Virus record (IMG/VR): IMGVR_UViG_3300032030_002018
From: a virus
Lineage: Duplodnaviria > Caudoviricetes
Length of the DNA stretch: 64,000 nt
Strand: one strand, 5' to 3'
This document shows, one piece after another, positions 31,998 through 47,860 of the stretch. Both the position numbers and the translations under genes were made by a program. Below the pieces are notes generated by a model. That model did not search any database. It had not been told where the DNA came from and saw nothing but the letters and a program-made list of their open reading frames with translations. Position 1 is the stretch's first letter. Each line of letters begins with the position of its first letter.

Positions 31998-32006
31998 CAT
32001 ATTTAT
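31998..32006 (+). promoter_or_regulatory. putative late promoter CATATTTAT
   Basis: Same motif, here on the plus strand 21 nt before a plus-strand gene, which fixes its orientation. Confidence 0.6.
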
Positions 32007-32027: not shown

Positions 32028-32690
32028 ATGAAAAAAAGAATTAGATTAACAGAGAGTGACCTGCACAGGATTGTAAATAGGTCAGTGAAAAGAGTACTAC
32101 GAGAGTCACAACTTCTTACAGAACTTGACCCGAGAACATATGCAAATTATGCAAGGGGTCGTGCGGCACAGGGCAATTATAAAAAGGCTGTAGAAGGGCA
32201 AGAGTATGCTGCTCAACAGTTTAACAATCAATATGGTTATGATAATCGAAACCTAAATGGATATGTTCAATCTGATAGCAATAACCCAAATGTCAAATAT
32301 ATGGGTTACGACACAGATTATTACCGTATGAGGAATGATAAGAAACCAGGTTATAGATTCAAATGGGATAGCCCTGATTATTATAAAAATCGTTATAATA
32401 ATAACGTATATGCTACTGAAAGATGGCAAAGTAAAAATTACCCAGGCAGAAATGATATGGACGACCAAGAAACATTCTCAACATATAATCCTGATACAGA
32501 TACAAGTAATTCCACAACATACGGTAGAATGAAATACCAAACGCAACCAAACAGACTTGTAGTATATGGTGATTATGACGGAAGACCAATTAGAAATCAA
32601 AATAACAATAGAAGTGGATTGTATGGTGATGAAGTTGCAAGACAAATGCAAACTGGTACTGGAATTTATAAAAATGGCAAATGGCAATAA
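32028..32690 (+). CDS. LTESDLHRIV-leader protein 1 (N/Y/D-rich cargo)
   Basis: Starts MKKRIRLTESDLHRIVNRSVKRVLRE; has its own promoter motif and terminator. Confidence 0.85.
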   Translation: MKKRIRLTESDLHRIVNRSVKRVLRESQLLTELDPRTYANYARGRAAQGNYKKAVEGQEYAAQQFNNQYGYDNRNLNGYVQSDSNNPNVKYMGYDTDYYRMRNDKKPGYRFKWDSPDYYKNRYNNNVYATERWQSKNYPGRNDMDDQETFSTYNPDTDTSNSTTYGRMKYQTQPNRLVVYGDYDGRPIRNQNNNRSGLYGDEVARQMQTGTGIYKNGKWQ

Positions 32691-32691
32691 C

Positions 32692-32725
32692 AAATAACCC
32701 AGACTAATTAAAGTCTGGGTTATTT
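32692..32725. terminator. bidirectional terminator
   Basis: AAATAACCCAGACT...AGTCTGGGTTATTT inverted repeat between convergent genes. Confidence 0.85.
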
Positions 32726-32745
32726 ATTTGTAAATTAAGCAAATA

Positions 32746-33201
32746 TTAACGAAACATTTTATCTGTTATATCAATCATTTGTCCGTCTTTAATCTCGTAT
32801 AACCTTTGGTTTGTTGTTTCTTTATTTATTGGTCCTCGTTCTTCAATATATCTCCCAAGTTTTATATAGTCAAAATTACTCTTTTCAACCTCACTTGCAA
32901 GATATTCTCTTCCTGAATACCATCCAACCTTTATTCTGCTGTATTTTTCCTTGATGTATTTAGCAAGAATATTTATTTCTTCAGGATTTCTGTCTCCACC
33001 CATAAAGCAAAAACAGGTAATCCCATTGTTACTTTTTATTAATGTATCAATTGATTCTTCATTTAGTTCCTCCCCAATATCATCCCATAAATGCTTTGAG
33101 TGGCATCCTTTACATCTAATAGGGCAGTTGCTGATATTGACAGCAAGAGTGATTTCATTTGGTATTTCAGAGAAAACCACCTCATTTTCAACAAATTTCA
33201 T
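32746..33201 (-). CDS. nrdG: anaerobic ribonucleotide reductase activating protein (radical SAM)
   Basis: CPIRCKGCHS (CxxxCxxC); adjacent to nrdD; YIKLGRY...TTNQRLY. Confidence 0.93.
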   Translation of the reverse strand: MKFVENEVVFSEIPNEITLAVNISNCPIRCKGCHSKHLWDDIGEELNEESIDTLIKSNNGITCFCFMGGDRNPEEINILAKYIKEKYSRIKVGWYSGREYLASEVEKSNFDYIKLGRYIEERGPINKETTNQRLYEIKDGQMIDITDKMFR

Positions 33202-33203
33202 AA

Positions 33204-35378
33204 TTAAGCAAAATATCTCATTTTTTCCTCTATCTGTCGAGGTTCACTAAAAGATGATACCCTTTTCAGATATCCTATAATTCTTGTTATAGCATCAACC
33301 TTATCGCTTCCACATTTAGGACATTTGTCAAGTTTTGTCTTCATAATATATCCACAATCATCACACACTCCACCTTCAATATTATAAGTGAAATAATTCG
33401 TACCATTCTTTGCTGCGAAATTCAATAGTTCACGATATTGTTCCTTTGATAAATGTTCTTTAAGATTTGCGTGATATGCACTTCCGCCATCAAGATATTT
33501 AACATAGTCACCGCCGTGCATAACAAACTTATCGAGTATACTAAGGCTTTCGTCTTCTGGGTTATAAAAATAAGAACTATACATAATATGTTTTGGACTC
33601 ACATAATAACCATCTTTTTTATCCCAATTATAATTCTTTACTGACAAATTCTCGCCTGGTACAAATTCTGTATTATACATACACTCCCTAGTTTTATCCT
33701 TTGCATTACACTTGTTTATAGTTTCAAGTATAAGGTTTACAAATTCTTTATATTCGTCATTTGGTGTTATTTGCAATCCCATAAATTCTGCCGCGTCAGT
33801 GAGTCCATTAACCCCTATTGTCAAATATTGCTTTTTCATATCAATAAATCCAGCGCTATATACAGGCAGCATATTAGCCTTGTAAAAATCCTTGATTATC
33901 TCGTTAAAAGCTTTCTGATATTTATGTACGTTAGATGTCATACCATCGACATATGAAGCAATATGGTTGTATAAGGAATCTTTATCCACAGACGACATAT
34001 CAAATCTTCCATCATCAAAATACTTACCGCCAAATTGATAAACATAATTTCTAACAGCGTTCTGTATTAAACGATTGAGATTAATTGTCATTACAGATTT
34101 TGAACCTGTCGCAACAGATGCAGTACCCATAGAGAATTGATGTGTTGTATAATTATGGTTTTCATCTGCCTGATTATTTTTTAACGAGTTTCTTAACCGG
34201 CAACACGATGATAACGAGTCTGGACTATCGCTTATGTAACAGAAGAATGAATGTCCTTCAGACCACATTTCTGATGTGAAATCTGCGTATTCCTTATCAA
34301 TGAAATCACCGTTCCCATCAGATAATAACGCCATAGTCTCAACTGGGAAAGTAAGGATATATTTTTCTCTCTCCTTATTGAACCATTTCATAAATTTCTT
34401 TTGAAGCCAAGATAATGTCTCCCATTTGGGTGAAGTTCCATCAGGAAACTTAAATTCGCCGAAAACACCTTCATAATAAGGCTTATCAAAGTAACCAACG
34501 TTCCAAAAGACCGTTTGGTATCCTCTGTTCCCAGCAGGCATATTCATACTATGCACTACCTGTTGGAAACAATTTTCAATAACCTGTTCAAGTGTTCTCT
34601 GTTTCCTGTTGTTTTCTACAACTTCATCTAACCTTGTTAAATAATCATCACCGTAATCTTTTCTTATGAAGTAATCTAAATATAATAAAAATTCAGGGGA
34701 AGCAACAGCGCCAGCGAACTGTGAAGAAACTGAATATATTAGATTTATAAATTCTCCACAGAAACTTTTTAAATCTGTGGGCGCAACAGATACCCCACCC
34801 AACTTCGTTAATCCATCAATCAAAAATGGATACATTGTAATACTGACACAATATGGAACACCAGGAATTGCAGTTTCGTCGTGCTTATATAATACGTGGC
34901 TCTCAAGGTCTGTTATGTATTGGTCTGCCAATTTCTTATTATACAAAGACTTTATTTTGTCACGCATTATGTATCTATTCTGCTTTATATTATTAACCTT
35001 ATAAAGTTCTTGACCCATCGTAACAACATTCTTATTACTTACATTCGCATTTGCGTCATATTTTGAGCCAGTTGAAGCATTTGAAGCTTTTATGTAATCA
35101 GAAATAAAGTTACTCTTCTTATTAAGTTCACTTTCGTTGTCAAATTTCTCTATGTATTTCCTTGCAACCTTTTTATTAATAGACATCAAACTATCCTCTA
35201 CTTGTCTTCTTATTTCAGAACTTGATATCTTTTCATAAACATAGATACTTGACACTATCGCCTTTATCACTTCTTCTTGACAACCTTCTCCTGCTGATTT
35301 GTAAGCCTCACAAATGCCATTTGCGACCTTTTCAGGGTTGTATTCCTCATAAGAACCGTTGCTTTTATATACGTTCAT
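33204..35378 (-). CDS. nrdD: class III anaerobic ribonucleoside-triphosphate reductase with N-terminal ATP cone
   Basis: YKHD, PYCVSI, SSCCRL, CDDCG...CPKCGS and the glycyl-radical motif TRIIGYL. Confidence 0.96.
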   Translation of the reverse strand: MNVYKSNGSYEEYNPEKVANGICEAYKSAGEGCQEEVIKAIVSSIYVYEKISSSEIRRQVEDSLMSINKKVARKYIEKFDNESELNKKSNFISDYIKASNASTGSKYDANANVSNKNVVTMGQELYKVNNIKQNRYIMRDKIKSLYNKKLADQYITDLESHVLYKHDETAIPGVPYCVSITMYPFLIDGLTKLGGVSVAPTDLKSFCGEFINLIYSVSSQFAGAVASPEFLLYLDYFIRKDYGDDYLTRLDEVVENNRKQRTLEQVIENCFQQVVHSMNMPAGNRGYQTVFWNVGYFDKPYYEGVFGEFKFPDGTSPKWETLSWLQKKFMKWFNKEREKYILTFPVETMALLSDGNGDFIDKEYADFTSEMWSEGHSFFCYISDSPDSLSSCCRLRNSLKNNQADENHNYTTHQFSMGTASVATGSKSVMTINLNRLIQNAVRNYVYQFGGKYFDDGRFDMSSVDKDSLYNHIASYVDGMTSNVHKYQKAFNEIIKDFYKANMLPVYSAGFIDMKKQYLTIGVNGLTDAAEFMGLQITPNDEYKEFVNLILETINKCNAKDKTRECMYNTEFVPGENLSVKNYNWDKKDGYYVSPKHIMYSSYFYNPEDESLSILDKFVMHGGDYVKYLDGGSAYHANLKEHLSKEQYRELLNFAAKNGTNYFTYNIEGGVCDDCGYIMKTKLDKCPKCGSDKVDAITRIIGYLKRVSSFSEPRQIEEKMRYFA

Positions 35379-35531
35379 AATTAACTATTTTTCTTTTTTT
35401 ATCTATTAGGTCAACCAAAAATTTTAAATACGCGCACTCATAAATATGCAATTTTTCATTAAAATTTTCCTGAAATTAACAAAAAAATCATATAATTCAC
35501 GCAACTCAATGAGTGTCAGCGAGAAAAAAAT

Positions 35532-36965
35532 TTAACTTTTTTTATCTCTTACCATTTTGAAAATTGACTGTTGTAATTTGACCTCATCTGTCTCTTTTTT
35601 CTTATCATAATCAAACATACTGTCAATCTCATCAACATTGTCTGTGCTTATTCTACAAGTACCATTGTTGAATTCAACGTTGTTGAAAACCTTACCAGCT
35701 TTACCAGCTCTGTTCTTCAAAATGGCTATTGTTGCCTTGTTATCCTGTATATCCTCATTGGTTCTCGCTATTGACATAACAATATGGGCAATCTGTATCT
35801 TCTTAAATGAACCACCTGCCTTATCCATTGTCACTAACTCTGCATTCACAGAATCTCTTGTACCCTGAACAGGCACCCATAGTGCAAAATCCATCTCACC
35901 AGCCATTGATTCAAGTTTTCTCATTGTCTTACCCTCTTTCTCCCATTCATTGTTAGTTGAAGAGTCTCCAACAATCCTCAATGTCTCAAAATAGTCTATT
36001 ATGACCATATCAGGCTTAAAACCGTGATTTATAAGTTTCTTTATGAACCTTTTTATGTCGTCAGCAGTCTTCTCACCAGATGGAAACCTCACAATTTTAA
36101 GATTGGCTTTCAGAGTATCCCTCTCTCCAAATCTTTCAAGTTGTTCCCTGACAATTTCAATATATTCAGGTTTTGAAAGGTCTTTAGCCTCAACCCCAGT
36201 AATTCTTCCTATATGTTTCCTCTGAATCTGCTTAATTCTGTCCTCAAATACAATTTGAAGCACTTTATATCCCCTGTTATTATTGTTGTCACATCTATAT
36301 GTAGCGGCATAAGAAGCCATTGCCGTTGACAATGACGACTTTCCAAATGAACTCGGACCTACTATTACACCCAATTCACCCTTTCCAAGTCCTCCTTCAA
36401 GGGTTTCGTCGATTTTGCCTATTCCTGTTGGTATTGTTATTCTGTAATCGTCAGAAAGCGTTTCTTCTATGTTGTCAAACACGGTCACGCCAAGGTCTTC
36501 GTGGACACCAGTTGCCATCGCATTGTTAAGTAGGTCAACGCAATCCTGATATTTTGTTATATCGCCATCACCTGCTATTTTAAGTATCTCATTAGCCGTT
36601 TTGATTATGTTCTGCTGCCTGAAAAACTTGATAGCCATTTCCTTTATATAGTCAGCACCGTCGGAAGGTGTGTCTATAATCTTGTCTGTCAACGCTATAT
36701 AAGTCTCTCTTTCAATCTCGTTATGAGAGCGGTCCGACAGGAGAATCTTCATTATATCATAACTTGGAACGACGTCGTGTTTCTCGTAATAGTCCTTCAT
36801 CGAGCCAACAAACACCCTTAATCCGGGGTTTGTGAACATATTCTGATTTAATATGGATGACAAGTCCATAAACAGTTCCTTGTCATCCATAAATTCGTGA
36901 ATAAGCTTGAATTGGAACTCCTCGCCCAAATATCCCAAGTTATTTCTATTCGTCTTATATACCAT
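35532..36965 (-). CDS. replicative DNA helicase (DnaB/gp41-like)
   Basis: IPTGIGKIDETLEGGLGKGELGVIVGPSSFGKS (Walker A), IIDY, LKNRAG; TAATG coupling with the upstream gene supports a start at 36965. Confidence 0.9.
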   Translation of the reverse strand: MVYKTNRNNLGYLGEEFQFKLIHEFMDDKELFMDLSSILNQNMFTNPGLRVFVGSMKDYYEKHDVVPSYDIMKILLSDRSHNEIERETYIALTDKIIDTPSDGADYIKEMAIKFFRQQNIIKTANEILKIAGDGDITKYQDCVDLLNNAMATGVHEDLGVTVFDNIEETLSDDYRITIPTGIGKIDETLEGGLGKGELGVIVGPSSFGKSSLSTAMASYAATYRCDNNNNRGYKVLQIVFEDRIKQIQRKHIGRITGVEAKDLSKPEYIEIVREQLERFGERDTLKANLKIVRFPSGEKTADDIKRFIKKLINHGFKPDMVIIDYFETLRIVGDSSTNNEWEKEGKTMRKLESMAGEMDFALWVPVQGTRDSVNAELVTMDKAGGSFKKIQIAHIVMSIARTNEDIQDNKATIAILKNRAGKAGKVFNNVEFNNGTCRISTDNVDEIDSMFDYDKKKETDEVKLQQSIFKMVRDKKS

Positions 36966-37699
36966 TATTTGTTTTTGTTTTTCTGTTTTGTCCAAGACCT
37001 AAACATCCTTGTATTCTGGTCTTCAATATTGAAGTTGTATTCTTTCTTACCCTTTGACTTGTCATCATTTCCGTATGTGACAATTGTGTTTGCTGAAAGC
37101 CTTCTGACTGAGTTGTCTCTTGATGAACAGGTTTCACATATCTTCTTTGTTATTGCGAAAAGAACATCAGGTCTGTCCATAATCATACCTCTCAGTACTA
37201 AAAGGTCTCCAAACAGCGTGTCCTTGTTCTTCTCAAAGAAGAATTCCTTGTCGTATACAACCGGTGTTCCATTTGTCATTATCTTCACAGACTTGTTCGC
37301 AAGGTCAACGTTGTCACGCACCACTCTTGGATAACAATATCCATCCCATATCTTTGACATAACAAGTTTGCCATTGTCTGTAATCTCAAATTTGAAGGTG
37401 CATTCCCAAGGTTCTATCAATGGTGACGTCAATTCCTCTGTTGCCTGAGGATTAGCATCAGGATTCTCAGGATTGAAATTATACCACGTCCAAACTCTAC
37501 TTTTTGAATTCAGGTCATTCTTAATCATCTCAACAATCTCATCAACACAATACTTGAAATCAAGCGTTTCCATACTATGCTCTATGAAATTGTAAATTCG
37601 TACAAAACGCTTGCATATTATGAAATTGTTGACATAAATAGCAAATTCAAACCTCTCATCTGGATAAACTTTTTCCTCATTAATCTTTTTTTCTTCCAT
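36965..37699 (-). CDS. hypothetical protein coupled to the helicase gene
   Basis: 244-aa ORF; stop overlaps the helicase start. Confidence 0.7.
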   Translation of the reverse strand: MEEKKINEEKVYPDERFEFAIYVNNFIICKRFVRIYNFIEHSMETLDFKYCVDEIVEMIKNDLNSKSRVWTWYNFNPENPDANPQATEELTSPLIEPWECTFKFEITDNGKLVMSKIWDGYCYPRVVRDNVDLANKSVKIMTNGTPVVYDKEFFFEKNKDTLFGDLLVLRGMIMDRPDVLFAITKKICETCSSRDNSVRRLSANTIVTYGNDDKSKGKKEYNFNIEDQNTRMFRSWTKQKNKNK

Positions 37700-37752
37700 T
37701 TTCAATAAAAAAATTAAAATTAAACAATACTTTTTTTCTCAATATTTTTTTG

Positions 37753-37783
37753 TAAATATACGTTAAAAAATGTTAAAAACAAA
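37753..37783 (-). promoter_or_regulatory. variant host-type promoter TTTG-N19-TATATTTA
   Basis: Spacing as in Bacteroidota promoters; TTAACA in the spacer. Confidence 0.5.
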
Positions 37784-37791
37784 ACAAATAA

Positions 37792-38949
37792 TTAACTATT
37801 TTTGTAAAAAAAATCTTTTTCCCTCTTAATCAACCCCTCAAATATCCCAAATAAATTCCCAAATGAATTCTCAGCAAGCAAATCATTCATTCCAAGTTTT
37901 GTGATTATATCATAAACATTCTTCATATCCCTTCCTTCAGGGTCAATTGGAACATACATAAGAGATTTCATAGCATCAACAGCCTCCTCAGTCATCATTG
38001 GCTCTGATAGGTCTATAATCCTCTTGTTTATATCATATATATCACTTCCTTGACAACCTTCTGTTACTTTGTTTACAATGTTTTCAAGTACCTTTAGTGG
38101 CTTTTTCTTATTCCTGACCCTTTCCTCATTGATTCTTGAAGCCTCATTCACTATATCGTCAACACTTCTCTCATTTTTAATTACATCAGGGAATGTCTTG
38201 ATAAACGTAGTCTTTCCAACACCTTTGATACCCTTGATATTATCAGAATTGTCTCCACATATTATTTTCTCCAATACGATATTCTTATGTGTTATTCCAA
38301 GCACATCTATTGAGTTTTCGGGTGTGACATATTTCTTTATTGAAGGTATATATAATGTAACCGTATCAGATATAAGTTGAGATAAATCCCTGTCTTCAGA
38401 CACTATGACAACCTTATCATCATCATTCTTGTTGTTTACATAATACGCTATAAGGTCATCTCCTTCAATGTCGTCACACATCAACTGTCTTACAAACAAC
38501 TCCTCCAATATGTTCATCAATACACCTCTCTGTCTTTGAAACACCTCATCATCAGTTTCAATACGTTTCACCTCACCTCGCTTGCTTGCATAATACTTAT
38601 CAGCCCTCTTACAGAAATCCATTATAGCCTTATCATACTCACTCTGACATTCACCATAATGCTTATCCCTGTTAGCCTTATAATCCTTGTATATATTATA
38701 CCTTAAACTTCCACTATAATCACCGTCCCAAAAAGTGTAAACATAATTAAAGTCCTTGACTTTTAGGAATCTGTTTATTTGGTAAAGGAACTGGTATATA
38801 CCACCATATTCCTTCCCTTCAGAATTCTCCCTTCTGTCAACAAGTGATTTCTTCAACAAGTTATTCCCATCTATCAATAATGTATATGTGACATTTGATT
38901 CAATTATGTTATTAGCATCACGTATGCTTTTTCTTATAACCTGTTTCAT
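37792..38949 (-). CDS. 5'-3' exonuclease / flap endonuclease (PolA N-terminal, T4 RNase H-like)
   Basis: LLIDGNNL, YKDYKANR, IEGDDLIAYY, SEDRDLSQL, GDNSDNIKGIKGVGKTT. Confidence 0.93.
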   Translation of the reverse strand: MKQVIRKSIRDANNIIESNVTYTLLIDGNNLLKKSLVDRRENSEGKEYGGIYQFLYQINRFLKVKDFNYVYTFWDGDYSGSLRYNIYKDYKANRDKHYGECQSEYDKAIMDFCKRADKYYASKRGEVKRIETDDEVFQRQRGVLMNILEELFVRQLMCDDIEGDDLIAYYVNNKNDDDKVVIVSEDRDLSQLISDTVTLYIPSIKKYVTPENSIDVLGITHKNIVLEKIICGDNSDNIKGIKGVGKTTFIKTFPDVIKNERSVDDIVNEASRINEERVRNKKKPLKVLENIVNKVTEGCQGSDIYDINKRIIDLSEPMMTEEAVDAMKSLMYVPIDPEGRDMKNVYDIITKLGMNDLLAENSFGNLFGIFEGLIKREKDFFYKNS

Positions 38950-38951
38950 CT

Positions 38952-40106
38952 CTATTCTGCATTAGCATAATTGAACAAATCATTGGCAAAATCAATAACC
39001 TCCCAGGGATAGTGGAAGGAATCATAACTTGCGTCACCAAAATGACCGTATTTTGCAAGATACTGATTTCTTGGTACTTCAGCTTTAAATCTTTTCATTA
39101 TACCACTTGGAGTACAGTCTATATTGTTGTCTATGTATTCAATAATACGTTTGGCAAGATGCTGATTCTCATCCATTTCAATATTAATTGATGATGGCTT
39201 TGCAATTCCAATCATATATGACAATTCAACCTTTGCAGTATTGCACAAGCCACTTGCAACTATATTCTTTGCTATATATCTTGCCATATAAGACGCTGAA
39301 CGGTCAACTTTTGTCATATCCTTACCTGAAAAAGCACCACCACCAACGCTACAATAACCACCATATTGGTCAACGACAATCTTCCTACCAGTAACACCAC
39401 AATCTGATATCGGACCGCCAATATTCCAAGTTCCACAAGGATTCACCGTTATCTCGGTATTGTCATTCCTTATCTTGTCTATAATTTGCTTCTCAAACCC
39501 AACCTCGTTATCAACTATACACCTTACAATAAATGTCCTTAATAAATCAATATCACATTGATGCATAGCTGAAACCAATATTGACACTATTTTTGATATT
39601 CCACAATCATACTCCACAATTACTTGTGTCTTCACATCAGGACCGATTGTATTACCCATTTTACCAGCCACAAATTGACATAGTTTCTTTGCTACAAAAT
39701 ATCCAAGCGGTAAATATGATTGAGTTTCATTGGAGGCGTAACCAACAACAAAACCCTGGTCACCTGCGCCAATCTCACCGTCTTCCTTGTCAACGCCTGA
39801 GTGTATTTCTGTTGATTGTTTTCCTATCAGATTGATAATCTTGATGTTATCAGGATTTAAATGATGTGATTCGGGGAATTTAATTTCACTGAATACTTTT
39901 CTTACAACATAATTGTAATCAACATACGCGTTAGAGTTTATTTCACCACCCAACACAACAACATTATCCTTCACCATTGTTTCGATGCCAGCTCTTACAT
40001 TAGTATCAGCTGAAAGATAAGCATCAAGAATGGCATCACTGATTTGGTCTGCGATTTTGTCAGGATGACCCCAACTTACATATTCACTAACAATAGTTTT
40101 TTTCAT
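38952..40106 (-). CDS. metK: S-adenosylmethionine synthetase
   Basis: SEYVSWGHPDKIADQISDAILD, GAGDQG, GVTGRKIVVDQYGG, GGGAFSGKD..KVDRS, YGHFG all intact. Confidence 0.96.
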   Translation of the reverse strand: MKKTIVSEYVSWGHPDKIADQISDAILDAYLSADTNVRAGIETMVKDNVVVLGGEINSNAYVDYNYVVRKVFSEIKFPESHHLNPDNIKIINLIGKQSTEIHSGVDKEDGEIGAGDQGFVVGYASNETQSYLPLGYFVAKKLCQFVAGKMGNTIGPDVKTQVIVEYDCGISKIVSILVSAMHQCDIDLLRTFIVRCIVDNEVGFEKQIIDKIRNDNTEITVNPCGTWNIGGPISDCGVTGRKIVVDQYGGYCSVGGGAFSGKDMTKVDRSASYMARYIAKNIVASGLCNTAKVELSYMIGIAKPSSINIEMDENQHLAKRIIEYIDNNIDCTPSGIMKRFKAEVPRNQYLAKYGHFGDASYDSFHYPWEVIDFANDLFNYANAE

Positions 40107-40157
40107 TTTTTTACTAAAATTAAAGGTTTAACATCTATTTTTTAACTAAAATTTTGT

Positions 40158-40189
40158 TAAATATACCCACTTTTTTCGAAAAAAACAAA
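40158..40189 (-). promoter_or_regulatory. variant host-type promoter for metK (TTTG-N20-TATATTTA)
   Basis: 20-nt spacer; the duplicate copy at 40941-40972 has the canonical TATATTTG. Confidence 0.55.
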
Positions 40190-40219
40190 AAAATATTAAT
40201 AAAAGTTAACAATAAGCAT

Positions 40220-40248
40220 AAAAAAAAGCGTCCAAATCGGAACGCTTT
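40220..40248 (-). terminator. intrinsic terminator (cassette copy 1)
   Basis: Minus strand AAAGCGTTCC-gattt-GGACGCTTTTTTT. Confidence 0.75.
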
Positions 40249-40324
40249 GAGGATATATTCAATAAGTCTATTGGACTGATTGTTACTGGGGTGGATTAAG
40301 TGCGCACAAGGTGGGTTGAACTCA

Positions 40325-40828
40325 TCACCATCCAATTCTAATATGACTATCGGCTTGTTTAAACCTATTTATTAATTCATTGTATTGAGATGGAAATAAT
40401 GCTTGAAATTTTTCTAATGATAGTTCCCTTTCATCATATTCTTTGTTGAATTCTCCTTCTATTTCATACCATCTTATAAAACCGCCATTTTTAAAGTCTG
40501 AATATTCACGCAAAGAAACCAAATAAATATAAACATCGTTGTTACCATCCACGCTTACATTATAAACCTGATACATTTTATTACCAAACGGAACTATTAT
40601 ACAATGTGTGCTATATTTGGGTATTTTTCCATTAGCCTCATCGTTATTCAGTATATCTTTAACAAATGGATAATGACGTTCTAAATCTCTTAAATCTGGA
40701 GAATTGTGTAAAACTTGAATTATTATATTTTTTCCGTAAGCATCACTGTTTTCTTTCAAAATTCTTTTCACTGACCTGTTCACAATTCTGTGAAGGTCTG
40801 ATTCTGTTAGTCTAATTCTCCTTTTCAT
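40325..40828 (-). CDS. LTESDLHRIV-leader protein 2
   Basis: MKRRIRLTESDLHRIVNRSVKRILKE plus unrelated globular-looking cargo; late motif at 40861-40869. Confidence 0.85.
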   Translation of the reverse strand: MKRRIRLTESDLHRIVNRSVKRILKENSDAYGKNIIIQVLHNSPDLRDLERHYPFVKDILNNDEANGKIPKYSTHCIIVPFGNKMYQVYNVSVDGNNDVYIYLVSLREYSDFKNGGFIRWYEIEGEFNKEYDERELSLEKFQALFPSQYNELINRFKQADSHIRIGW

Positions 40829-41002
40829 ATTATTTCTATTATATTATCTTATTTTTCCTTATAAATATCACGATATTTTTGTTTTGTCATATTTTTTACT
40901 AAAATTAAAGGTTTAACATCTATTTTAACATTTTTTTAAGCAAATATACATACATTTTAACTAAAAAACAAAGAAATCTTAATAAAAGTTAACAATAAGC
41001 AT

Positions 41003-41029
41003 AAAAAAAGCGTCCCAAAAGGAACGCTT
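41003..41029 (-). terminator. intrinsic terminator (cassette copy 2)
   Basis: Minus strand AAGCGTTCC-tttt-GGGACGCTTTTTTT. Confidence 0.75.
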
Positions 41030-41102
41030 CATTGATATGTTTTGGTAAGTACAGTTGTATCATCAATAGATACACTAATATCAAAGTTGTATTGATGTAT
41101 GG

Positions 41103-41585
41103 CTAAGCATCGAATACCCTGTTAAGACTCCATTTTCTATGTAATGGTCTTTTATCAGCAGCATCTAATGCTCTATTAAATGATTTGTCAGTTTTAGGCT
41201 GCTGCGATGTTTGTTTATCAAAGTCTTCAAACTCATCATTATCAAATCCGTCAGCACCTCTTACAAACCAATCGCTTGGTCGCATCCATTTACCGCTATC
41301 ATCTGAATATTCACGCCCTTTAGGTTCATCAAGTCTATATTGATAATTTGTTTCGGCTCTTGGGTCTCTATGTGGGATAGACCTTAAATACTGTTTGGTA
41401 TCAGAAGCAAGTCCACGACCAAGACCTCTTACATCAGCATATGAACGGTTTTTTGCACGTCCAAATTCATCATAATCTATAATTCCGCTATCATCTATAT
41501 CCCATACTTCATTCAAGGTTCTTTTCACTGATTCATTCACAATTCTATGAAGGTCTGATTCTGTTAATCTAATTCTCTTTTTCAT
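41103..41585 (-). CDS. LTESDLHRIV-leader protein 3 (D/R-rich cargo)
   Basis: MKKRIRLTESDLHRIVNESVKRTLNE; late motif at 41618-41626. Confidence 0.85.
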   Translation of the reverse strand: MKKRIRLTESDLHRIVNESVKRTLNEVWDIDDSGIIDYDEFGRAKNRSYADVRGLGRGLASDTKQYLRSIPHRDPRAETNYQYRLDEPKGREYSDDSGKWMRPSDWFVRGADGFDNDEFEDFDKQTSQQPKTDKSFNRALDAADKRPLHRKWSLNRVFDA

Positions 41586-41634
41586 ATTATATTTATTATA
41601 TTTCCTTATTTTTCTTTATAAATATCACGATATT

Positions 41635-41666
41635 TTTGTTTTTGTCGTATTTTTTATGTATATTTG
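41635..41666 (+). promoter_or_regulatory. Bacteroidota primary-sigma promoter
   Basis: TTTG 41635-41638, 20-nt spacer, TATATTTG 41659-41666. Confidence 0.75.
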
Positions 41667-41695
41667 TAATATATTTATATTAAAAATGTTAGATT

Positions 41696-42475
41696 ATGTA
41701 TTTAGAAAGTCCTTTTAAGAGTTGGTGGGAGGCGAGAGATGTATTCAAGATGCCTCGTTTCTCATTTTATATGGGTTCTTTGTCAAAATGTGAAGGTGTT
41801 TACTACAACGATGAAGAAAACGAAGAATATAACAGAAAGGAAGCAGAAAAACTTCTTAACATATATAAATTAAAGAAAATGTTGAAAATTATGACAATTT
41901 CTTTATTATTGTTGCTGTTTTTCTTGTATGTTATTGGAAATGTGTTTTTAAGTTGTACAATATGTGTTATATGCTCATATCATATAATACAAGGTGTAAT
42001 AGACATATTTAAATTAAAGTTAATGCCTTCGAAATTCTGTAAGAAAACAAGAATGTCATACACATCCAAGGGTTTTGTTTACTTCGTATCGAAACATTTC
42101 CTCAAATGGAGCAAATATCCAATAACAATAACATCTCACGATATTGGTTGGAAAACTAAATTTGATGATGTTAGATATGAAACCCCTGGATTTTTCTCAA
42201 TAATATTCGGAAGAAACCCTGATACGGCATACCAAATATGTATGATGGTTTCAAGCCCTAAATCAGAACTTGAACATCTTAATAAAAGCACATCATTCAG
42301 AGACCTAATATATTGGGAAATGATTCTTTCTTATCTATATGTAGATAAAGACATAGAAAAGGCAAGGAAGATGCGTTCAGGATGTTGGGGAGGAAGCGAC
42401 GGAAATAAAACACCTGAATGGGATGAAAGTTTCGTAAAAGACAAATATAAGACAAAAAACACCAGTATGAAATAA
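41696..42475 (+). CDS. hypothetical membrane protein
   Basis: 259 aa with a central hydrophobic stretch (ISLLLLLFFLYVIGNVFLSCTICVIC). Confidence 0.7.
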   Translation: MYLESPFKSWWEARDVFKMPRFSFYMGSLSKCEGVYYNDEENEEYNRKEAEKLLNIYKLKKMLKIMTISLLLLLFFLYVIGNVFLSCTICVICSYHIIQGVIDIFKLKLMPSKFCKKTRMSYTSKGFVYFVSKHFLKWSKYPITITSHDIGWKTKFDDVRYETPGFFSIIFGRNPDTAYQICMMVSSPKSELEHLNKSTSFRDLIYWEMILSYLYVDKDIEKARKMRSGCWGGSDGNKTPEWDESFVKDKYKTKNTSMK

Positions 42476-42484
42476 CATACTGGT
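42461..42484. terminator. bidirectional terminator
   Basis: ACCAGTATG-aaataa-CATACTGGT flanked by A- and T-runs. Confidence 0.8.
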
Positions 42485-42490
42485 ATTTTT

Positions 42491-42811
42491 TTAGTTCGGA
42501 TTATATATCACATTGACAGTTGTATCACCTGTTATCAACCCATTAACAACAGGTGTTTCTGTTGTATATCCTGTTATTTCAGGACTGCTTACTGCATAAT
42601 GAGTTCTATATGTCATTTGTTCCGTATATTGGCTTGATATAGGTTCGTCATTTTCATCAATATAATTGATAGTTAACGTATACAATATCGGATTATAATG
42701 TAAAGCACTACCTTCCTCAACGTAACTTACATTAGGATAATCTGTATTCCCTGTGATATACTCTTGATAATCAGCATCATTTTCAAAATAAGTTAAATAT
42801 CTCTTTTCCAT
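42491..42811 (-). CDS. small protein with C-terminal MucBP-like domain
   Basis: YTLTINYIDENDEPI...YAVSSPEITGYT...GLITGDTTVNVIY matches the MucBP repeat pattern; late motif at 42832-42840. Confidence 0.7.
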   Translation of the reverse strand: MEKRYLTYFENDADYQEYITGNTDYPNVSYVEEGSALHYNPILYTLTINYIDENDEPISSQYTEQMTYRTHYAVSSPEITGYTTETPVVNGLITGDTTVNVIYNPN

Positions 42812-42838
42812 ATTCAATTCTATTTTTCTTTATAAATA

Positions 42839-43522
42839 TCACGAATAATAGAATTTATAATCAAGATGTTTGTCATAATCCTCAATTAAATATATAATTG
42901 TTGACTTTGTATTCTTGTATTTTGAATTATCGCCAGAATAATTGAATATCTTTATATCATTAAACTCCTCGCAGAACTTCTTAATTATAGCCTCCTTCTT
43001 CTCCCAGGCGCACCGTATGGCGATATCTCGTTCGTCACCTACATATGATACCGTGGCAAGAAAAAGTCTGTCCTGGTTGTTATTTCGCACCCCTTGTGAC
43101 TGTTTGTCATAAAAGAAATTTATGACAAGTTCTGGGTGTTCCAACAAATAATCCTTTTCATAAGTTTTCAACAAATCATTTGGCAGTCTTGTTGATTTCA
43201 AGTCAAATTTGACACCATTTATGGAGAAATCCCAATTCTTATCTTTTGAATCAGGATTCTTGGATACATTTTCATTCAGACAAAACAATTCCTCATCACA
43301 CATTGCAGCCTGATATCTGAAAAATCTAGTATGGTAATATTTTATAATACCTTCTGCGTTAAATCCTTTCTCCTTTAACATACGGTCAATTTCATCAATG
43401 GTGGAGCATTTGTAAAACGCCCCACCCAATATCTTGTCAAATCCATCATTCTGTATTGTTCCCCAACCATAGATGTCTTTTCCTATTCCTGTTAGATAAG
43501 ATTCTCTCTCCTTTAATGTCAT
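42839..43522 (-). CDS. putative PD-(D/E)xK endonuclease
   Basis: E..F...WDFSINGVKFDLKST pattern (D-x8-D-x-K). Confidence 0.5.
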   Translation of the reverse strand: MTLKERESYLTGIGKDIYGWGTIQNDGFDKILGGAFYKCSTIDEIDRMLKEKGFNAEGIIKYYHTRFFRYQAAMCDEELFCLNENVSKNPDSKDKNWDFSINGVKFDLKSTRLPNDLLKTYEKDYLLEHPELVINFFYDKQSQGVRNNNQDRLFLATVSYVGDERDIAIRCAWEKKEAIIKKFCEEFNDIKIFNYSGDNSKYKNTKSTIIYLIEDYDKHLDYKFYYS

Positions 43523-43548
43523 CCACCATCATATTTATCCATATTATA

Positions 43549-44736
43549 TCAGTCCAACGTTTCCTCTTCCTCAAAATCAACTTCCTCAACATCAGACTCA
43601 TAAATGTCACTCCTGTCACTTATCTCACCAATCTTGTTCAATATTTCCTTTACATTATTCTTCTTATATTCATCAAGTTTATCTTCAGATATAATTCCAT
43701 TATGCACGCAACACATTGTACCTGAATATGTTATATTGAATGGCGTTGGCAATTGGTTTTTAGTTACAGACAGTTTTGTGACAATACCATAGTTATATGT
43801 CTCACCCTTTGCTGTTGCCGTAAGTTTCTTTGTAGCCGCTTTGGCAACGCCCCCAAGGTGAATAATAAGTCTTGCACCATAGAAGAATGTCTTGCCACCC
43901 TTAAGTTCCAGTGATACACCTGCCATTGAATTCATATTGTCCTGCCATATCTTGTTAACACAGAACATTGTATTGGTATATTTCTCACTTACCTTTCTCG
44001 ATGTTGGTATTCTATCGTTTATAATACTGTTGAATGACTGTGATATTGCACCAGCATCAAATTGATTATTACCTAATTTACTTGTAAGTGACTTAAATGA
44101 TATGATTGAGCCAATACTATCCCATATAAAGCATATTGGTTGTTTTATTTTACCATCATCTTGATAATCAAGTATTTCATTGATTGAATATGCAATATCC
44201 TCAATTACAGCACGATGACGTCTTTTGGAAACTCTTTTACCGGCTGAGTAATCCATATCGCCGTATTTATTAACCAAAGTCTTTGTGTCGTAATATATGA
44301 AATTACCTTTATAATTGATAATTCCTTCAGTTACCTCACCTGTATCTTCGTCAATAATTTCTCCGTATACAGGTTCTGCTTCCACGCCACAGTCGATTGC
44401 GTATTTCCAATCAAAATTACCCTCAGTCTCATAAATAACTGGCAATATTCCTTTCTTTTGACAGGCAGCGATAAGACAATTTTTTATAGTTGATTTGCCT
44501 GTATTTGACCATCCTGTACATAATGTCAAATAACCCATTGGTATTCCAGGTAATTTAAGAGCATTCTCAAATGCTTCTGGTAACACAATGAAATCAAGAG
44601 GTTTTTCTGCACTTGACACTTCAAGGTCACTTCTCTTTACAGGTTTGTTATTCTCTTCAATATTGATTCCCAATAACTTATTTATATCATCAATACTTGG
44701 AATTTCAAATGTTTTCTTTTTAATAGCTTGCTTCAT
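43549..44736 (-). CDS. uvsX: RecA/UvsX-like recombinase
   Basis: GIPMGYLTLCTGWSNTGKST (Walker A), YETEG, FIWDSIG (Walker B), KGGKTFFY; next to SSB and tdk. Confidence 0.88.
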   Translation of the reverse strand: MKQAIKKKTFEIPSIDDINKLLGINIEENNKPVKRSDLEVSSAEKPLDFIVLPEAFENALKLPGIPMGYLTLCTGWSNTGKSTIKNCLIAACQKKGILPVIYETEGNFDWKYAIDCGVEAEPVYGEIIDEDTGEVTEGIINYKGNFIYYDTKTLVNKYGDMDYSAGKRVSKRRHRAVIEDIAYSINEILDYQDDGKIKQPICFIWDSIGSIISFKSLTSKLGNNQFDAGAISQSFNSIINDRIPTSRKVSEKYTNTMFCVNKIWQDNMNSMAGVSLELKGGKTFFYGARLIIHLGGVAKAATKKLTATAKGETYNYGIVTKLSVTKNQLPTPFNITYSGTMCCVHNGIISEDKLDEYKKNNVKEILNKIGEISDRSDIYESDVEEVDFEEEETLD

Positions 44737-45334
44737 AATTTTCTCTAATTTTTTTCTTATAGCATAATCTGCATAATGGTTGGTAAACATCGTCTCCTCC
44801 AATCATAAACTGATTACCTTCCTTTATTATATTGCCATCCTTATCAAACCTTGCATTAACTGTTGCCTTTCTACCACATTTACAACTTGATTTCACCTCA
44901 AATATATCGTCTGCAATCTCAAATAATCTTTTAGATGCTTCAAATAGTTTAGATTTGAAATCAGTTCTAAGCCCATAACATATAACATCCGTATCCATAA
45001 GGTCAACAACATCTGATAATTGGTCAACCTGTTCTGGTGTCAGGAATTGGCATTCGTCAACCAATACCCATTTGTTTGGCGGTTGTTGATTAGCCATTCT
45101 AACATCGTTATATGTCTTAACAGCCTCGTAAATATTGACATCAGAAGCAACACTTACACATTCCATTTTCAATCCAGCCCTTGATTTGACATATCTCTTT
45201 CCGTCTCTGTTATCAACTCCTGGTTTAAGTAACATAAATGGTATTCCCTTTTCCTTGAAACTATGGGCAGTTGCCAAAAGATTCAAACTCTTGGCACTCC
45301 CCATAGCACCGAAATAAAACCTTAATTTAGCCAT
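44720..45334 (-). CDS. tdk: thymidine kinase
   Basis: FGAMGSAKS, LVDECQFL, YGLRTDF, CKCG...YQPLCRLCY. Confidence 0.96.
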   Translation of the reverse strand: MAKLRFYFGAMGSAKSLNLLATAHSFKEKGIPFMLLKPGVDNRDGKRYVKSRAGLKMECVSVASDVNIYEAVKTYNDVRMANQQPPNKWVLVDECQFLTPEQVDQLSDVVDLMDTDVICYGLRTDFKSKLFEASKRLFEIADDIFEVKSSCKCGRKATVNARFDKDGNIIKEGNQFMIGGDDVYQPLCRLCYKKKIRENYEASY

Positions 45335-46296
45335 TAAAAAGGTAATTCTTCTTCATTATTCTCTTCATCAGAGTTTATTTGTTCAACCCACTTCGTGTAA
45401 TCAGTGGTTGACTGTGTTAAATTGTCTTGTATCTCTCTCTCTTTCCTTTCAGCCTCAATCTTATTGAAACTATCCCTGTCAACGTATTTGCCTGATGTCT
45501 TGTCGAAAACAGGTATTCCGCCTTCAACGATTATTGCCATATATTCATATGGCTTCACAGTGAATACATCAGTCCATTTCTTCTCGTCATTAACCCACGA
45601 CAAAGCTTGTTCATAATCATCAGAAAGAGGTGTGTTCCTTCCTTTATCTGTAACTTGAACTGTCGTCTTGTTATTGGAGTCTTTTGACAAAGTTATAACA
45701 AGGTCTTTTCCTTCATTAAGGTCAAATATATTTTCCTCGTGACCGTCTTCCTTACCTTCGTCATATCTTGTCTTGAATAGGTTCATAATCTTGTCGTACA
45801 CACCGTCCTTCTTCTTTGAATGACTGAATACCCAGAACTTAACTCCGTCTTCCTCGTGTCCTCTCTCTATACATCTGACAATCCAAGATTCCTTTGCTCT
45901 GTTAGCAAATTCAATATCTCCGTATTTTTTCTTTTCAGATTCAGAAGATGCTTCATTGCGTAACTTCCTAGCTTGTTCAGATGTCTCACAGAATGGGCAT
46001 TGGTGTTTATTTTCAATGTCATTCTTCTCTGGACATATGAATGTGCGCCAACCGCTATTGGTCAGTTCTTTATTAACCTTTACAGTGTGTGTGTGGATTT
46101 TATAAAATGGTGAGCCACCTTCAGGGAAAAACGGCAATAACCTTATGGTTATTTTCTTTGTGGTCTCATCAGGTCCAAGCCTTGCTTGAAGATAATTTTT
46201 TGGATTAAATTCTGTTCTCTTCTTTGGTGCTAAAGTCTCTTGTTCATTTTGGCTGATAACAGCATCTACATCAATGTTAACATTTAAATTATTCAT
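45334..46296 (-). CDS. single-stranded DNA-binding protein, T4 gp32-like
   Basis: IRLLPF, H...CP...CPFCE zinc ligands, IFDLNEGKDL, acidic C-terminus EEELPF. Confidence 0.85.
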   Translation of the reverse strand: MNNLNVNIDVDAVISQNEQETLAPKKRTEFNPKNYLQARLGPDETTKKITIRLLPFFPEGGSPFYKIHTHTVKVNKELTNSGWRTFICPEKNDIENKHQCPFCETSEQARKLRNEASSESEKKKYGDIEFANRAKESWIVRCIERGHEEDGVKFWVFSHSKKKDGVYDKIMNLFKTRYDEGKEDGHEENIFDLNEGKDLVITLSKDSNNKTTVQVTDKGRNTPLSDDYEQALSWVNDEKKWTDVFTVKPYEYMAIIVEGGIPVFDKTSGKYVDRDSFNKIEAERKEREIQDNLTQSTTDYTKWVEQINSDEENNEEELPF

Positions 46297-46353
46297 AATA
46301 TATAAAAAGTTTTAAAATGCGCACCTATTATGCGCTTAAATATTATTTCGAAT

Positions 46354-46404
46354 TAAAGATATATAAAAAATGTTAAAAAACCAAATTTTTCCACTATAAA
46401 TATC
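46354..46404 (-). promoter_or_regulatory. tandem promoters for the SSB operon: late motif (46396-46404) and variant host-type TTTG-N20-TATCTTTA (46354-46385)
   Basis: Both motifs are read directly from the sequence. Confidence 0.55.
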
Positions 46405-46407
46405 CGG

Positions 46408-46448
46408 AAAAAAATAAAAAAATGCAACCATTTTTTTTAGGTTGCATT
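46408..46448 (-). terminator. intrinsic terminator
   Basis: AATGCAACC / GGTTGCATT inverted repeat followed on the minus strand by a T-run. Confidence 0.8.
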
Positions 46449-46453
46449 CTTAT

Positions 46454-47860
46454 TTACCATTCATCATCATAGTCTGGTTGTCTTACAATACCGTCATCTA
46501 TTCTTCTTTCTATTTCATTTGTTAGTTGTTCTCTTCCGTAGATGTCGAACCATCTTTCAAGTTCATCACTTATTGGTATCTGTCTTCCATATCCACTATG
46601 CCCACGCATAAGAAAGTCTAATTCTATTTCTCCGTTTGCATAAGTTCCTCGTAATGTGTACCAATTGTTGTCACATCTTGCCTCAAAATCGTAATATCCA
46701 TCTGGGTTTTCTGATATATCTGTGATATGCCAATCACTGAAATCTATCTGACCGCCACCAAGATTCATTTCACTTATAATTCTTCTAACTGAATTATTTA
46801 CAATTCTATGCAAGTCACTTTCTGTAAGTCTTACTTTTCTCATTGTGTTTCTATTTTTGTTTTCCTGTCTTATTAAATTGTGATATTGAGCCATTGTCAT
46901 TTCGTCTCCATCTGACTTGGTGAGTTTTTGACCCCATACCTTATCCCTGTTCCTTCTGAAATCTTTCAATGCTCTCCATTTCTCGTAAGGGCTTTGAAGA
47001 TGTAGTGGTCTATCGTCATTGTTTGTACTATCGCTTTCATTCTCTTCAGAATCATAGTCATTACGTCCAGTAACATCTTTTGTTACTTTTGGTTCTTCTC
47101 CGTGAATAAATCCTCTGACTGTCCAAGAAAGAACACCATCCTCACCGGAGTCGAAAGAAGTGTCACGAAGATATGTGTAGTTCATCAATGTCATAACAGG
47201 AATGCCTGAAGTCTTACTTAAATCAGTAATAATTCGCCTCATTTCGCCTGGTGATAGATTCTCATCATTATACATACATATAATGTAATCCTCAGTCCAT
47301 ATTCTTCCATTATACTGTGTTTTATGATAAAACCAGTCATTGAATTTTCTAGATGAGAACTGAAAATCAGAATCGCTGTTTATTAATGAGTAAAAATCAT
47401 TTGAGTAAAGTCCTGTGTAATTATGGATAATGTCATCATAAGCGTCTTTATTGTTGTCAACAATTTCATTTATCTGACCATACGTAATACCACCATTAGC
47501 TTGTCTGAACTTAATGATTTGTTTGAACGCATCGTAATCATCAAAGTCACCGGAATAATTATCATAATAAAAAGTCGCAACATCTTCATTATAATCTTCT
47601 TTGTTATTGTCATATTCCTCCAATAACCATTCAAGTTCATTCGCACGCTCATATTGAAAATCGTCCAATAAACTGTTAACACATTCTGCGTAAAATCTTG
47701 ATGAAGCCTCTTTATGTGTTGTTTGCTCTTTGCCATAGCACATCTTATACTCTTCCCTGTCGTCAAGAGTAGCCCAATATCCAAATGGATGGGCACCGTA
47801 ATAGTCCCACATTAATTCGATATCATTCCATTCAACCAAATCCGGTGTTGCTGTTAACAT
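46454..47860 (-). CDS. 468-aa acidic protein with an internal LTESDLHRIV leader
   Basis: MRKVRLTESDLHRIVNNSVRRIISE begins at an internal ATG at 46843. Confidence 0.8.
   Translation of the reverse strand: MLTATPDLVEWNDIELMWDYYGAHPFGYWATLDDREEYKMCYGKEQTTHKEASSRFYAECVNSLLDDFQYERANELEWLLEEYDNNKEDYNEDVATFYYDNYSGDFDDYDAFKQIIKFRQANGGITYGQINEIVDNNKDAYDDIIHNYTGLYSNDFYSLINSDSDFQFSSRKFNDWFYHKTQYNGRIWTEDYIICMYNDENLSPGEMRRIITDLSKTSGIPVMTLMNYTYLRDTSFDSGEDGVLSWTVRGFIHGEEPKVTKDVTGRNDYDSEENESDSTNNDDRPLHLQSPYEKWRALKDFRRNRDKVWGQKLTKSDGDEMTMAQYHNLIRQENKNRNTMRKVRLTESDLHRIVNNSVRRIISEMNLGGGQIDFSDWHITDISENPDGYYDFEARCDNNWYTLRGTYANGEIELDFLMRGHSGYGRQIPISDELERWFDIYGREQLTNEIERRIDDGIVRQPDYDDEW

Follow-up and report, generated by a model that had tools for sequence, protein, structure and literature searches.

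Bacteriophage T4 carries diverse internal proteins whose only common element is a capsid-targeting sequence (PMC3012670). This sequence, present on IPI-III and Alt, is a short conserved peptide of 10-20 residues, is strictly N-terminal and ends in (L/I)-x-E (PMC3012670, PMC5694885). Here we describe a 26-residue peptide, hereafter the tag, that we analyzed in a 64,000-nucleotide stretch of viral DNA (the window) from the IMG/VR record IMGVR_UViG_3300032030_002018. Like the T4 sequence, the tag is borne by diverse proteins that turn over fast between related phages, it ends in (L/I)-x-E, and the phage encodes a gp21-type protease, a scaffold core and a gp23-type shell. Unlike the T4 sequence, it forms a long conserved helix with two site-like motifs, it also occurs internally, C-terminally and in repeats, it is found on about 30 carriers per genome with mostly acidic cargos, and it is known here from sequence alone. 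Head targeting followed by prohead-protease processing is the best reading of the tag, and we hold it tentatively, at somewhat under an even chance.

Other described systems resemble the tag in part. The giant phages phiKZ, 201phi2-1 and SPN3US likewise mature many of their head proteins with a homologous prohead protease, with multiple sites within propeptides and with conserved N-termini in the paralogs gp53 and gp54 (PMC5694885). Their propeptides, however, are cut at (A/S/G)-x-E, are often >100 residues long and have no shared module, whereas the present phage has one 26-mer with Leu at P3 and a T4-like head lineage with a recognizable scaffold gene. In polyvalent and MuF proteins, effector modules thought to be codelivered with DNA are joined in one polypeptide and processed, as far as the account of Iyer et al. 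2017 given in PMC7824862 goes. By contrast, the element in common here is a short repeated peptide, the tagged proteins are mostly encoded by separate small genes, and neither MuF nor any other known head-anchoring or effector domain of Pfam was found in 30 tagged proteins of this genome, 149 from metagenomes and 8 from relatives. The tag also recalls the promoter early stem-loop (PeSL) mobile regulatory cassettes of T4-type phages, in which conserved regulatory flanks surround unrelated genes and allow modular shuffling (PMC2839356). Unlike in those cassettes, the block conserved here includes coding sequence, and what is preserved in that part is the peptide. Encapsulin cargo-loading peptides and bacterial microcompartment encapsulation peptides are short, often helical and portable and send unrelated cargo into a shell, and encapsulin shells have the capsid fold; however, these peptides are not known to be removed by a maturation protease or to be phage-borne, and they have no sequence relation to the tag.

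The source of the window is a single record of 334,687 bp (96% complete), of which the window covers bases 58,645-122,644. It represents an uncultured jumbo phage with a T4-type head module consisting of a gp23-like capsid protein, an acidic scaffold, a Peptidase_S77 protease and a gp20-like portal. The first-pass annotation of the window had reported four proteins sharing one peptide, and a six-frame scan recovered exactly four perfect copies of RLTESDLHRIVN, with the peptide starting at 32028 (+), 40828 (-), 41585 (-) and 46843 (-). The genes concerned and their flanking elements are as follows (aa, amino acids; nt, nucleotides; ATG, the start codon).

32028..32690 (+): gene F05, 220 aa, with the tag at residues 1-26 (32028-32105)
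31999-32006 (+): promoter-like motif ATATTTAT of F05, starting 29 nt and ending 21 nt before the ATG
40325..40828 (-): gene F06, 167 aa, with the tag at 40751-40828 and an orphan cargo
40861-40868 (-): ATATTTAT motif of F06, ending 32 nt from the ATG
40225-40248 (-): terminator-like hairpin behind F06, homologous to the hairpins of F07 and F24
41103..41585 (-): gene F07, 160 aa, with the tag at 41508-41585 and an orphan cargo
41618-41625 (-): ATATTTAT motif of F07, ending 32 nt from the ATG
41007-41030 (-): terminator-like hairpin behind F07
46454-47860 (-): gene F08, 468 aa, in which an internal tag separates ~340 aa of N-terminal sequence from a C-terminal cargo of ~103 aa
46769-46843 (-): internal tag of F08, MRKVRLTESDLHRIVNNSVRRIISE, at residues 344-368, with no ATATTTAT before it

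The four copies are conserved as peptides, as had been proposed from their codon usage. The Ser codon is AGT at 32028 and 46843 and TCA at 40828 and 41585, while the first Leu is encoded by TTA, CTA, TTA and CTT and the second by CTG, CTT, CTT and TTG at 32028, 40828, 41585 and 46843, respectively. Among the window copies, the proportion of synonymous differences (pS) is 0.34-0.75 and that of nonsynonymous differences (pN) 0.08-0.23; averaged over all 378 pairs of paralogs genome-wide, they amount to 0.66 and 0.23. These values indicate old copies in which the peptide is what is kept. The statement that similarity ceases at (L/I)-x-E also stood, with no conservation beyond E26 in 28 aligned copies. 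The spacing of 21-32 nt given for ATATTTAT upstream of the three stand-alone genes was exact (21, 32 and 32 nt). Each of these genes had also been credited with its own terminator, which holds for F06 and F07, whereas no hairpin was found behind the gene at 32028.

In the 28 aligned copies from this genome, L7, E9 and V20 are invariant and S19 and E26 are conserved in at least 90%. The sequence logo drawn from 106 internal metagenome copies has the consensus K-K-x-(I/V)-R-L-T-E-S-D-L-H-R-I-V-K-E-S-V-x-x-(I/V)-L-x-E. When its first Leu is numbered 0, as it is for E2, S12 and E19 in what follows, the most conserved positions of these 106 copies are 0 (Leu, 72%; 98% with V/I/M), 2 (Glu, 98%), 5 (Leu, 91%), 12 (Ser, 83%), 17 (Leu, 83%; 97% with I/V/M) and 19 (Glu, 94%). 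Conservation ceases directly after E19. The module thus contains two near-invariant (L/V/I)-x-E motifs, L-T-E|S near its start and L-x-E at its very end, and the residue two before E2 and E19, which is P3 of either site, is L/V/I/M in 97-98%, unlike the (A/S/G) of phiKZ and SPN3US. In structural terms, the module opens with basic residues (K-K-x-I-R-L) and continues as an amphipathic helix (T-E-S-D-L-H-R-I-V-x-x-S-V-K-R-x-L-x-E). Hydrophobic residues at positions 5, 8/9, 12/13 and 16/17 lie on one face with a small Ser in the middle, a pattern that suggests close helix packing against a partner. No hydrophobic core like that of Sec or Tat signals was seen in the 28-copy alignment, and the peptide is charged along its whole length. 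A Phi-x-E-S-K site upstream of internal copies was also considered and is not claimed, since E, S, N and Y were no more than diffusely enriched between -15 and -8.

Each genome appears to carry its own version of the tag. In this genome, R at position 3 and N after R-I-V occur in ~70% of copies, compared with <10% in seven other genomes, and in the cargo families F05, F08 and F29, which have orthologs elsewhere, the tag follows the signature of the resident genome. As a pattern in sequence, this fits one common partner, and because synonymous sites are near saturation, co-evolution with one partner fits the signature better than recent gene conversion does. Alternatively, the signature may have arisen by a founder effect followed by recombination at the tag. 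Distant relatives, whose capsid protein is ~51-61% identical, have a shorter tag, MKKVIKLTESDLxxIVKRVLNE, with one helical turn fewer (L040:6425-8233, L071:5831-7057 and L080:7809-9461), and larger proteins beside their scaffold gene have several weak tag copies.

The four carriers in the window are real and belong to a much larger family. With a profile built from the copies, the tag was found on ~30 genes across the genome, in addition to a few half-motifs, and tag genes account for ~7% of genes in these jumbo phages. Relatives were collected by capsid-protein similarity and form a large uncultured group in which many records are 270-412 kb long and complete with terminal repeats. Of 22 related records (107-412 kb), 21 carry the tag on 3-18 genes each: 9 of ten such genomes have 3-18 copies, which weaken as the capsid protein diverges, and twelve further records have 4-18 copies each. 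In a search of 1.84 billion representative proteins, the profile matched 471 clusters at E<=1e-10 and, at the looser threshold of E<=1e-3, 6,926. The tag matched no model in Pfam-A, PHROGs v4, PADLOC or the PDB sequences, the only hits of the PDB profile search being designed helical repeats over 10 residues, and its motif strings were absent from a full-text literature search. The family is thus new to annotation in Pfam, PHROGs, PDB and the searched literature.

The peptide had been described as a leader. This is correct for the three stand-alone window genes, in which it is N-terminal; however, the copy at 46843 is internal to the 468-aa F08, which comparison with relatives identifies as one real protein. 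In this genome 5 of 30 copies are internal, and the best metagenome matches have the tag at the N-terminus in 148 cases, internally in 130 and at the C-terminus in 12; most often a protein has two copies, and 2-3 are common. The internal copies mostly lack a Met or a promoter. Because the module is also internal, C-terminal and present several times per protein, the picture of a strictly N-terminal leader was partly wrong. Comparison of relatives revealed exchange of the parts on either side. P0174, which is 69% identical to F08, has kept the N-terminal 340 residues and a diverged tag and has a different C-terminal body, and in P0175 and P0177 the C-terminal cargo of F08 stands behind an internal tag with a different N-terminal part. 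A 670-aa protein of a relative has the tag at both ends, and a 191-kb contig encodes a three-module protein (P0022) 5 kb behind its S77-scaffold-Gp23 genes. These swaps and multi-tag proteins show that bodies are exchanged and joined at the tag.

The exchange is also visible in DNA. F06, F07 and F24 have unrelated bodies between a common 5' block, which comprises the promoter-like motif, the 5' untranslated region (UTR) and most of the tag, and a common 3' hairpin terminator; the 5' blocks of F06 and F07 are 90% identical over 138 nt (about -70 to +67). The ATATTTAT of F06 lies within a ~70-nt promoter/5'UTR block common to F07, F03, F29 and F24, whereas the DNA upstream of other tag copies is quite different. 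Recombination at the tag is probably the mode of body shuffling, whichever function the peptide has. In one tag gene, F17 (L010:15855-15870; genome ~213857-213870), a run of ten A residues after the ATG leaves the ATG one base out of frame with KKKLIKLTESDL; slippage, an error in the homopolymer or decay to a pseudogene could account for this.

The cargos are 60-230 aa long and unrelated to one another. The claim that the carriers share nothing alignable beyond the peptide was borne out by BLASTP of the parts after residue 28 of all 30 members, which gave no pair at E<0.01. However, the cargo at 32028 is not an orphan, because F05 has ~15 full-length orthologs and weak paralogs with a common ELD(P/W)RTY...KGKGW frame (family motifs ELDPRTYA..KRAAQG ... 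GKYxKGKGWQ). Comparison of the 30 cargos with Pfam, PHROGs and PADLOC gave nothing meaningful, and essentially none of the 149 best metagenome tagged proteins has a Pfam domain. A match of F06 to phrog_847 'Ant' (E=0.0013) was judged to be due to chance. An AF2 model of F05 from 19 sequences (predicted local distance difference test score (pLDDT), 78; predicted template modeling score (pTM), 0.70) shows the tag helix followed by a folded alpha+beta cargo, and its sole early low-confidence stretch, residues 24-31, spans the L-R-E between helix and cargo. Foldseek searches of PDB and BFVD with this model returned nothing at E<=0.001, and the best VIA-align Z score of 6.7 was within the noise range, so that no convincing fold match was obtained. 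The AF2 model of F08 (4 sequences; mean pLDDT 39) is usable only for the C-terminal beta/alpha cargo (pLDDT 60-73), and F06 in the ESM Atlas has an own model of pLDDT 0.40 and no useful neighbors.

The cargos also turn over rapidly. By tblastn (E<1e-5) against two relatives with capsid proteins 75-79% identical, none of the 30 bodies had a homolog, compared with 96 of 254 other small genes (p=2e-6). The two relatives carry 7 and 17 tag genes of their own, with different bodies. By analogy with known injected proteins, we infer that the cargos may have an anti-defense role.

Head genes of the T4 type were identified as listed below, and a match to phrog_207 was found beside that to phrog_138.

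218164-220170 of the genome (-): gp23-like capsid protein (phrog_138, 1.3e-64)
just upstream of the capsid gene, between the capsid and protease genes: acidic 516-aa scaffold-like protein
221939-223093 of the genome (L011:4939-6093), divergently transcribed: Peptidase_S77 prohead protease, 384 aa (PF03420, 38.7 bits, above the curated cut-off)
191717-192946 of the genome: gp20-like portal (Portal_T4, PF07230)

In T4 gp23, an L-T-E|A stretch marks the removal point of a 65-residue propeptide (PMC5694885). Because the capsid protein of the present phage aligns its ...HLISE|ATAAD... onto T4 gp23 ...FLTE|AEIGG..., a T4-like (L/I)-x-E protease specificity is plausible in this phage. The protease open reading frame (ORF) matches Peptidase_S77 in two pieces, and the stretch between them hits intein-bearing PHROG families (phrog_85), consistent with an intein-like insert.

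Tag genes are found near head genes more often than expected: in ten genomes, 22 of 110 tag copies are no more than 10 kb from the capsid gene, where 6.6 would be expected, a figure inflated by tandem duplicates and common ancestry. In the relative G002, the portal gene is followed by genes for proteins of 562, 74 and 441 aa, then by four tag genes interspersed with one other gene, and finally by the protease, scaffold and capsid genes, and the slot occupied by the tag genes is that of the small core genes 67 and 68 in T4. No sequence likeness between the tag and T4 gp67 or gp68 was seen by eye. The N-terminal helix of the scaffold (..VKESLxE, ..KILNE) resembled the tag by eye, but this candidate was dropped because the tag profile does not score scaffolds. 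When the tag was co-folded with the scaffold-like protein, the score was 0.00 in a run without controls, which speaks neither for nor against an interaction. A link between the N-terminal part of F08 and the 562-aa gene behind the portal of G002 was not used, as it consists of a 48-residue match only (E=0.001).

The upstream motif associates tag genes with the protease gene. On 422 crude gene calls, ATATTTAT precedes 46 genes, comprising 15 of the 30 tag genes and 31 of the 392 others (odds ratio 11.6, p=2e-8), and these values are likewise raised by duplication and shared descent. Among the others are the protease gene, one for a baseplate-hub-like protein and several of very large size, and the motif also lies ~90 nt before the scaffold gene. 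A different motif, TACATTTG, lies 23-62 nt upstream of 30 small genes, mostly at 238-260 kb of the genome and also at 286-296 kb, and precedes none of the 30 tag genes. Because TACATTTG fits the Bacteroidota -7 promoter consensus, TAnnTTTG, its region is probably an early region, and there is a hint of a Bacteroidota host. Judged by these motifs, tag genes appear to favor a non-early promoter class common to the protease gene. Outside the window, a perfect palindrome made up of A and T only (AGTTTAATAAT/ATTATTAAACT, contained in CGTTTAGTTTAATAATTATTATTAAACT) was observed at five sites (genome 131991-132018, 137295-137322, 162626-162653, 227760-227787 and 228673-228700), at 4 of which it stands 10-13 nt before the ATG of tag genes beginning with 'MRKNR(I/V)RL'. 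This subgroup lacks ATATTTAT on the strand of the gene. The palindrome could serve as an operator, as a terminator for both directions or as a further type of promoter.

The analogy with T4 capsid targeting drawn in the first-pass annotation is thus retained in part: the S77 protease, scaffold and gp23 set, the L-x-E ends, the promoter class and the proximity to head genes agree with it, whereas the strictly N-terminal leader does not. If the tag is a head signal, tagged genes would be expressed alongside the structural genes, and the helix would dock onto one common component of the assembling prohead core, leading to enclosure of the tagged protein. The Peptidase_S77 protease would then cut both (L/V/I)-x-E sites or one of them (L-T-E|S and L-x-E|), which would free the cargo within the head and split multi-module proteins, and the cargo would exit with the DNA at infection. 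We infer docking, cleavage, packaging and ejection by analogy with the known systems. Extended to the whole group, it is possible, though we lean slightly against it, that a large uncultured clade of 100-400-kb phages with T4-type heads uses a portable, position-independent address-and-cleavage module by which dozens of proteins and multi-module polyproteins, interchangeable and quickly replaced, enter the capsid and are delivered to the host. Such a system would be of a kind already known from T4 and, more loosely, from phiKZ-like phages, with a module, an architecture and a scale that Pfam, PHROGs, the PDB and the searched literature did not yield.

Several observations weigh against packaging into the head. 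Some copies stand at the extreme C-terminus with nothing after them, and an HNH-like protein is bordered by half-motifs. What a cleavage site or a T4 tag of 10-20 residues needs (PMC5694885) falls far short of a helix of 26 residues in which polar positions are conserved, and thirty packaged species would be many. Cargos are acidic in 22 of 30 cases, compared with 55% of other small proteins. One complete relative has S77-type head genes without the tag, and another, 95% complete, has no S77 match. No cultured phage record carries the tag, and tblastn of F06 and of a two-tag protein against 50,697 phage records gave no genuine match. Besides the inflation of the promoter and neighborhood statistics, one of two transposase/TnpB-like genes (phrog_506; E 1e-118 at L011:14550-15755 (-) and 1e-133 at L016:2036-3235 (-)) and an HNH endonuclease gene are preceded by ATATTTAT; because of these, the motif is not restricted to structural genes and is at most a candidate for a 'late' class. 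The main rival is a docking or oligomerization helix unrelated to the capsid, which would bind one phage or host hub or self-associate and thereby recruit or multimerize small effectors in the infected cell. We consider this unlikely, yet a serious contender, since the helix is amphipathic with S12 amid its hydrophobic face and conserved polar positions, occurs independently of position and in several copies per protein, bears a genome-specific signature and matched only idealized designed helical repeats in the PDB profile search. What such a helix leaves unexplained is why conservation stops exactly at the Glu two after a Leu, the near-invariant second motif L-T-E, the clustering with head genes and the upstream motif common to the protease gene.

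The remaining explanations fare less well. The net charge of the tags (+1 to +7) and the mostly acidic cargos would suit an arginine/lysine-rich helix that binds nucleic acid and tethers cargos to phage DNA or RNA, with any entry into the head occurring by riding the DNA; we find this quite improbable, as conservation is highest at E2, E19, S12 and the hydrophobic positions while the basic positions vary among K, R and N, and no DNA- or RNA-binding family was matched. We give just as little credence to a recognition sequence for another enzyme or route, such as a modifying enzyme, a chaperone or translocase, or export, similar to the leaders of ribosomally synthesized and post-translationally modified peptides (RiPPs) with repeats flanking modules. 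One conserved leader on many hypervariable bodies and repeated leader-body units in single proteins would be expected from it, but cargos of 60-230 aa, at least one of which is predicted by AF2 to be folded, the lack of a Sec/Tat hydrophobic core on reading the sequence, and the lack of a candidate modifying enzyme linked to tag genes speak against it. It is very unlikely that the peptide has no function of its own and merely travels in a mobile cassette of DNA that carries a promoter, a 5'UTR, the first codons and a terminator and so disperses and shuffles genes. The block around the unrelated bodies of F06, F07 and F24 (~90%, -70 to +67, plus the 3' terminator), the cargo swaps exactly at the module and the gene shuffling by mobile regulatory cassettes reported for T4-type phages (PMC2839356) are what such a cassette predicts. 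However, the peptide is kept though synonymous sites are near saturation, it occurs in several upstream contexts and mostly without Met or promoter when internal, and its conservation extends to phages that share just ~50-60% identity in their capsid proteins. Recombination at the module thus probably accounts for the shuffling, not for conservation of the peptide. Finally, the first-pass annotation had itself raised the case that the peptide is the first helix of one fold common to whole-length homologs. A subset (F05, F12, F23, P0014 and P0022) does have further common motifs after the tag, but this case is scarcely credible and is contradicted by the BLASTP comparison, by the occurrence of the module at the N-terminus, internally, at the C-terminus and in repeats, and by orthologs that exchange cargos behind it.

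The window tag genes are placed amid genes for nucleotide metabolism and replication (window 33204-35378 (-) and 45334-46296 (-)). An NrdD-like protein with 45-54% identity to phage NrdD and a gp32-like protein with a PF08804 match were identified, and NrdG, DnaB-like, FEN-like, S-adenosylmethionine (SAM) synthetase and thymidine kinase genes were recognized by eye. Directly upstream of F08, with a 4-nt gap, is a gene for a 294-aa protein in which the unit GGDPGMGG(G)MPPQ recurs in tandem about six times (window 47865-48749 (-)), adjoined by a 2,349-aa ORF that has no Pfam match (window 49271-56320 (-)). The tail of the G002 portal is rich in G, M, P and D, like this repeat protein.

If the tag is a head-loading signal, a simple motif search would yield a catalog of candidate injected proteins from uncultured gut and rumen-type phages, and the tag would represent a plug-in route of protein delivery, evolved in nature, that exceeds the T4 internal proteins by far in size and modularity. 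Foreign proteins could then also be packaged into large capsids with a second natural tag. Because the tagged cargos match no known family and are under fast turnover, they would be a good place to seek counter-defense proteins. Even if the capsid reading fails, one helix on many unrelated bodies points to a single hub that phage proteins must reach.

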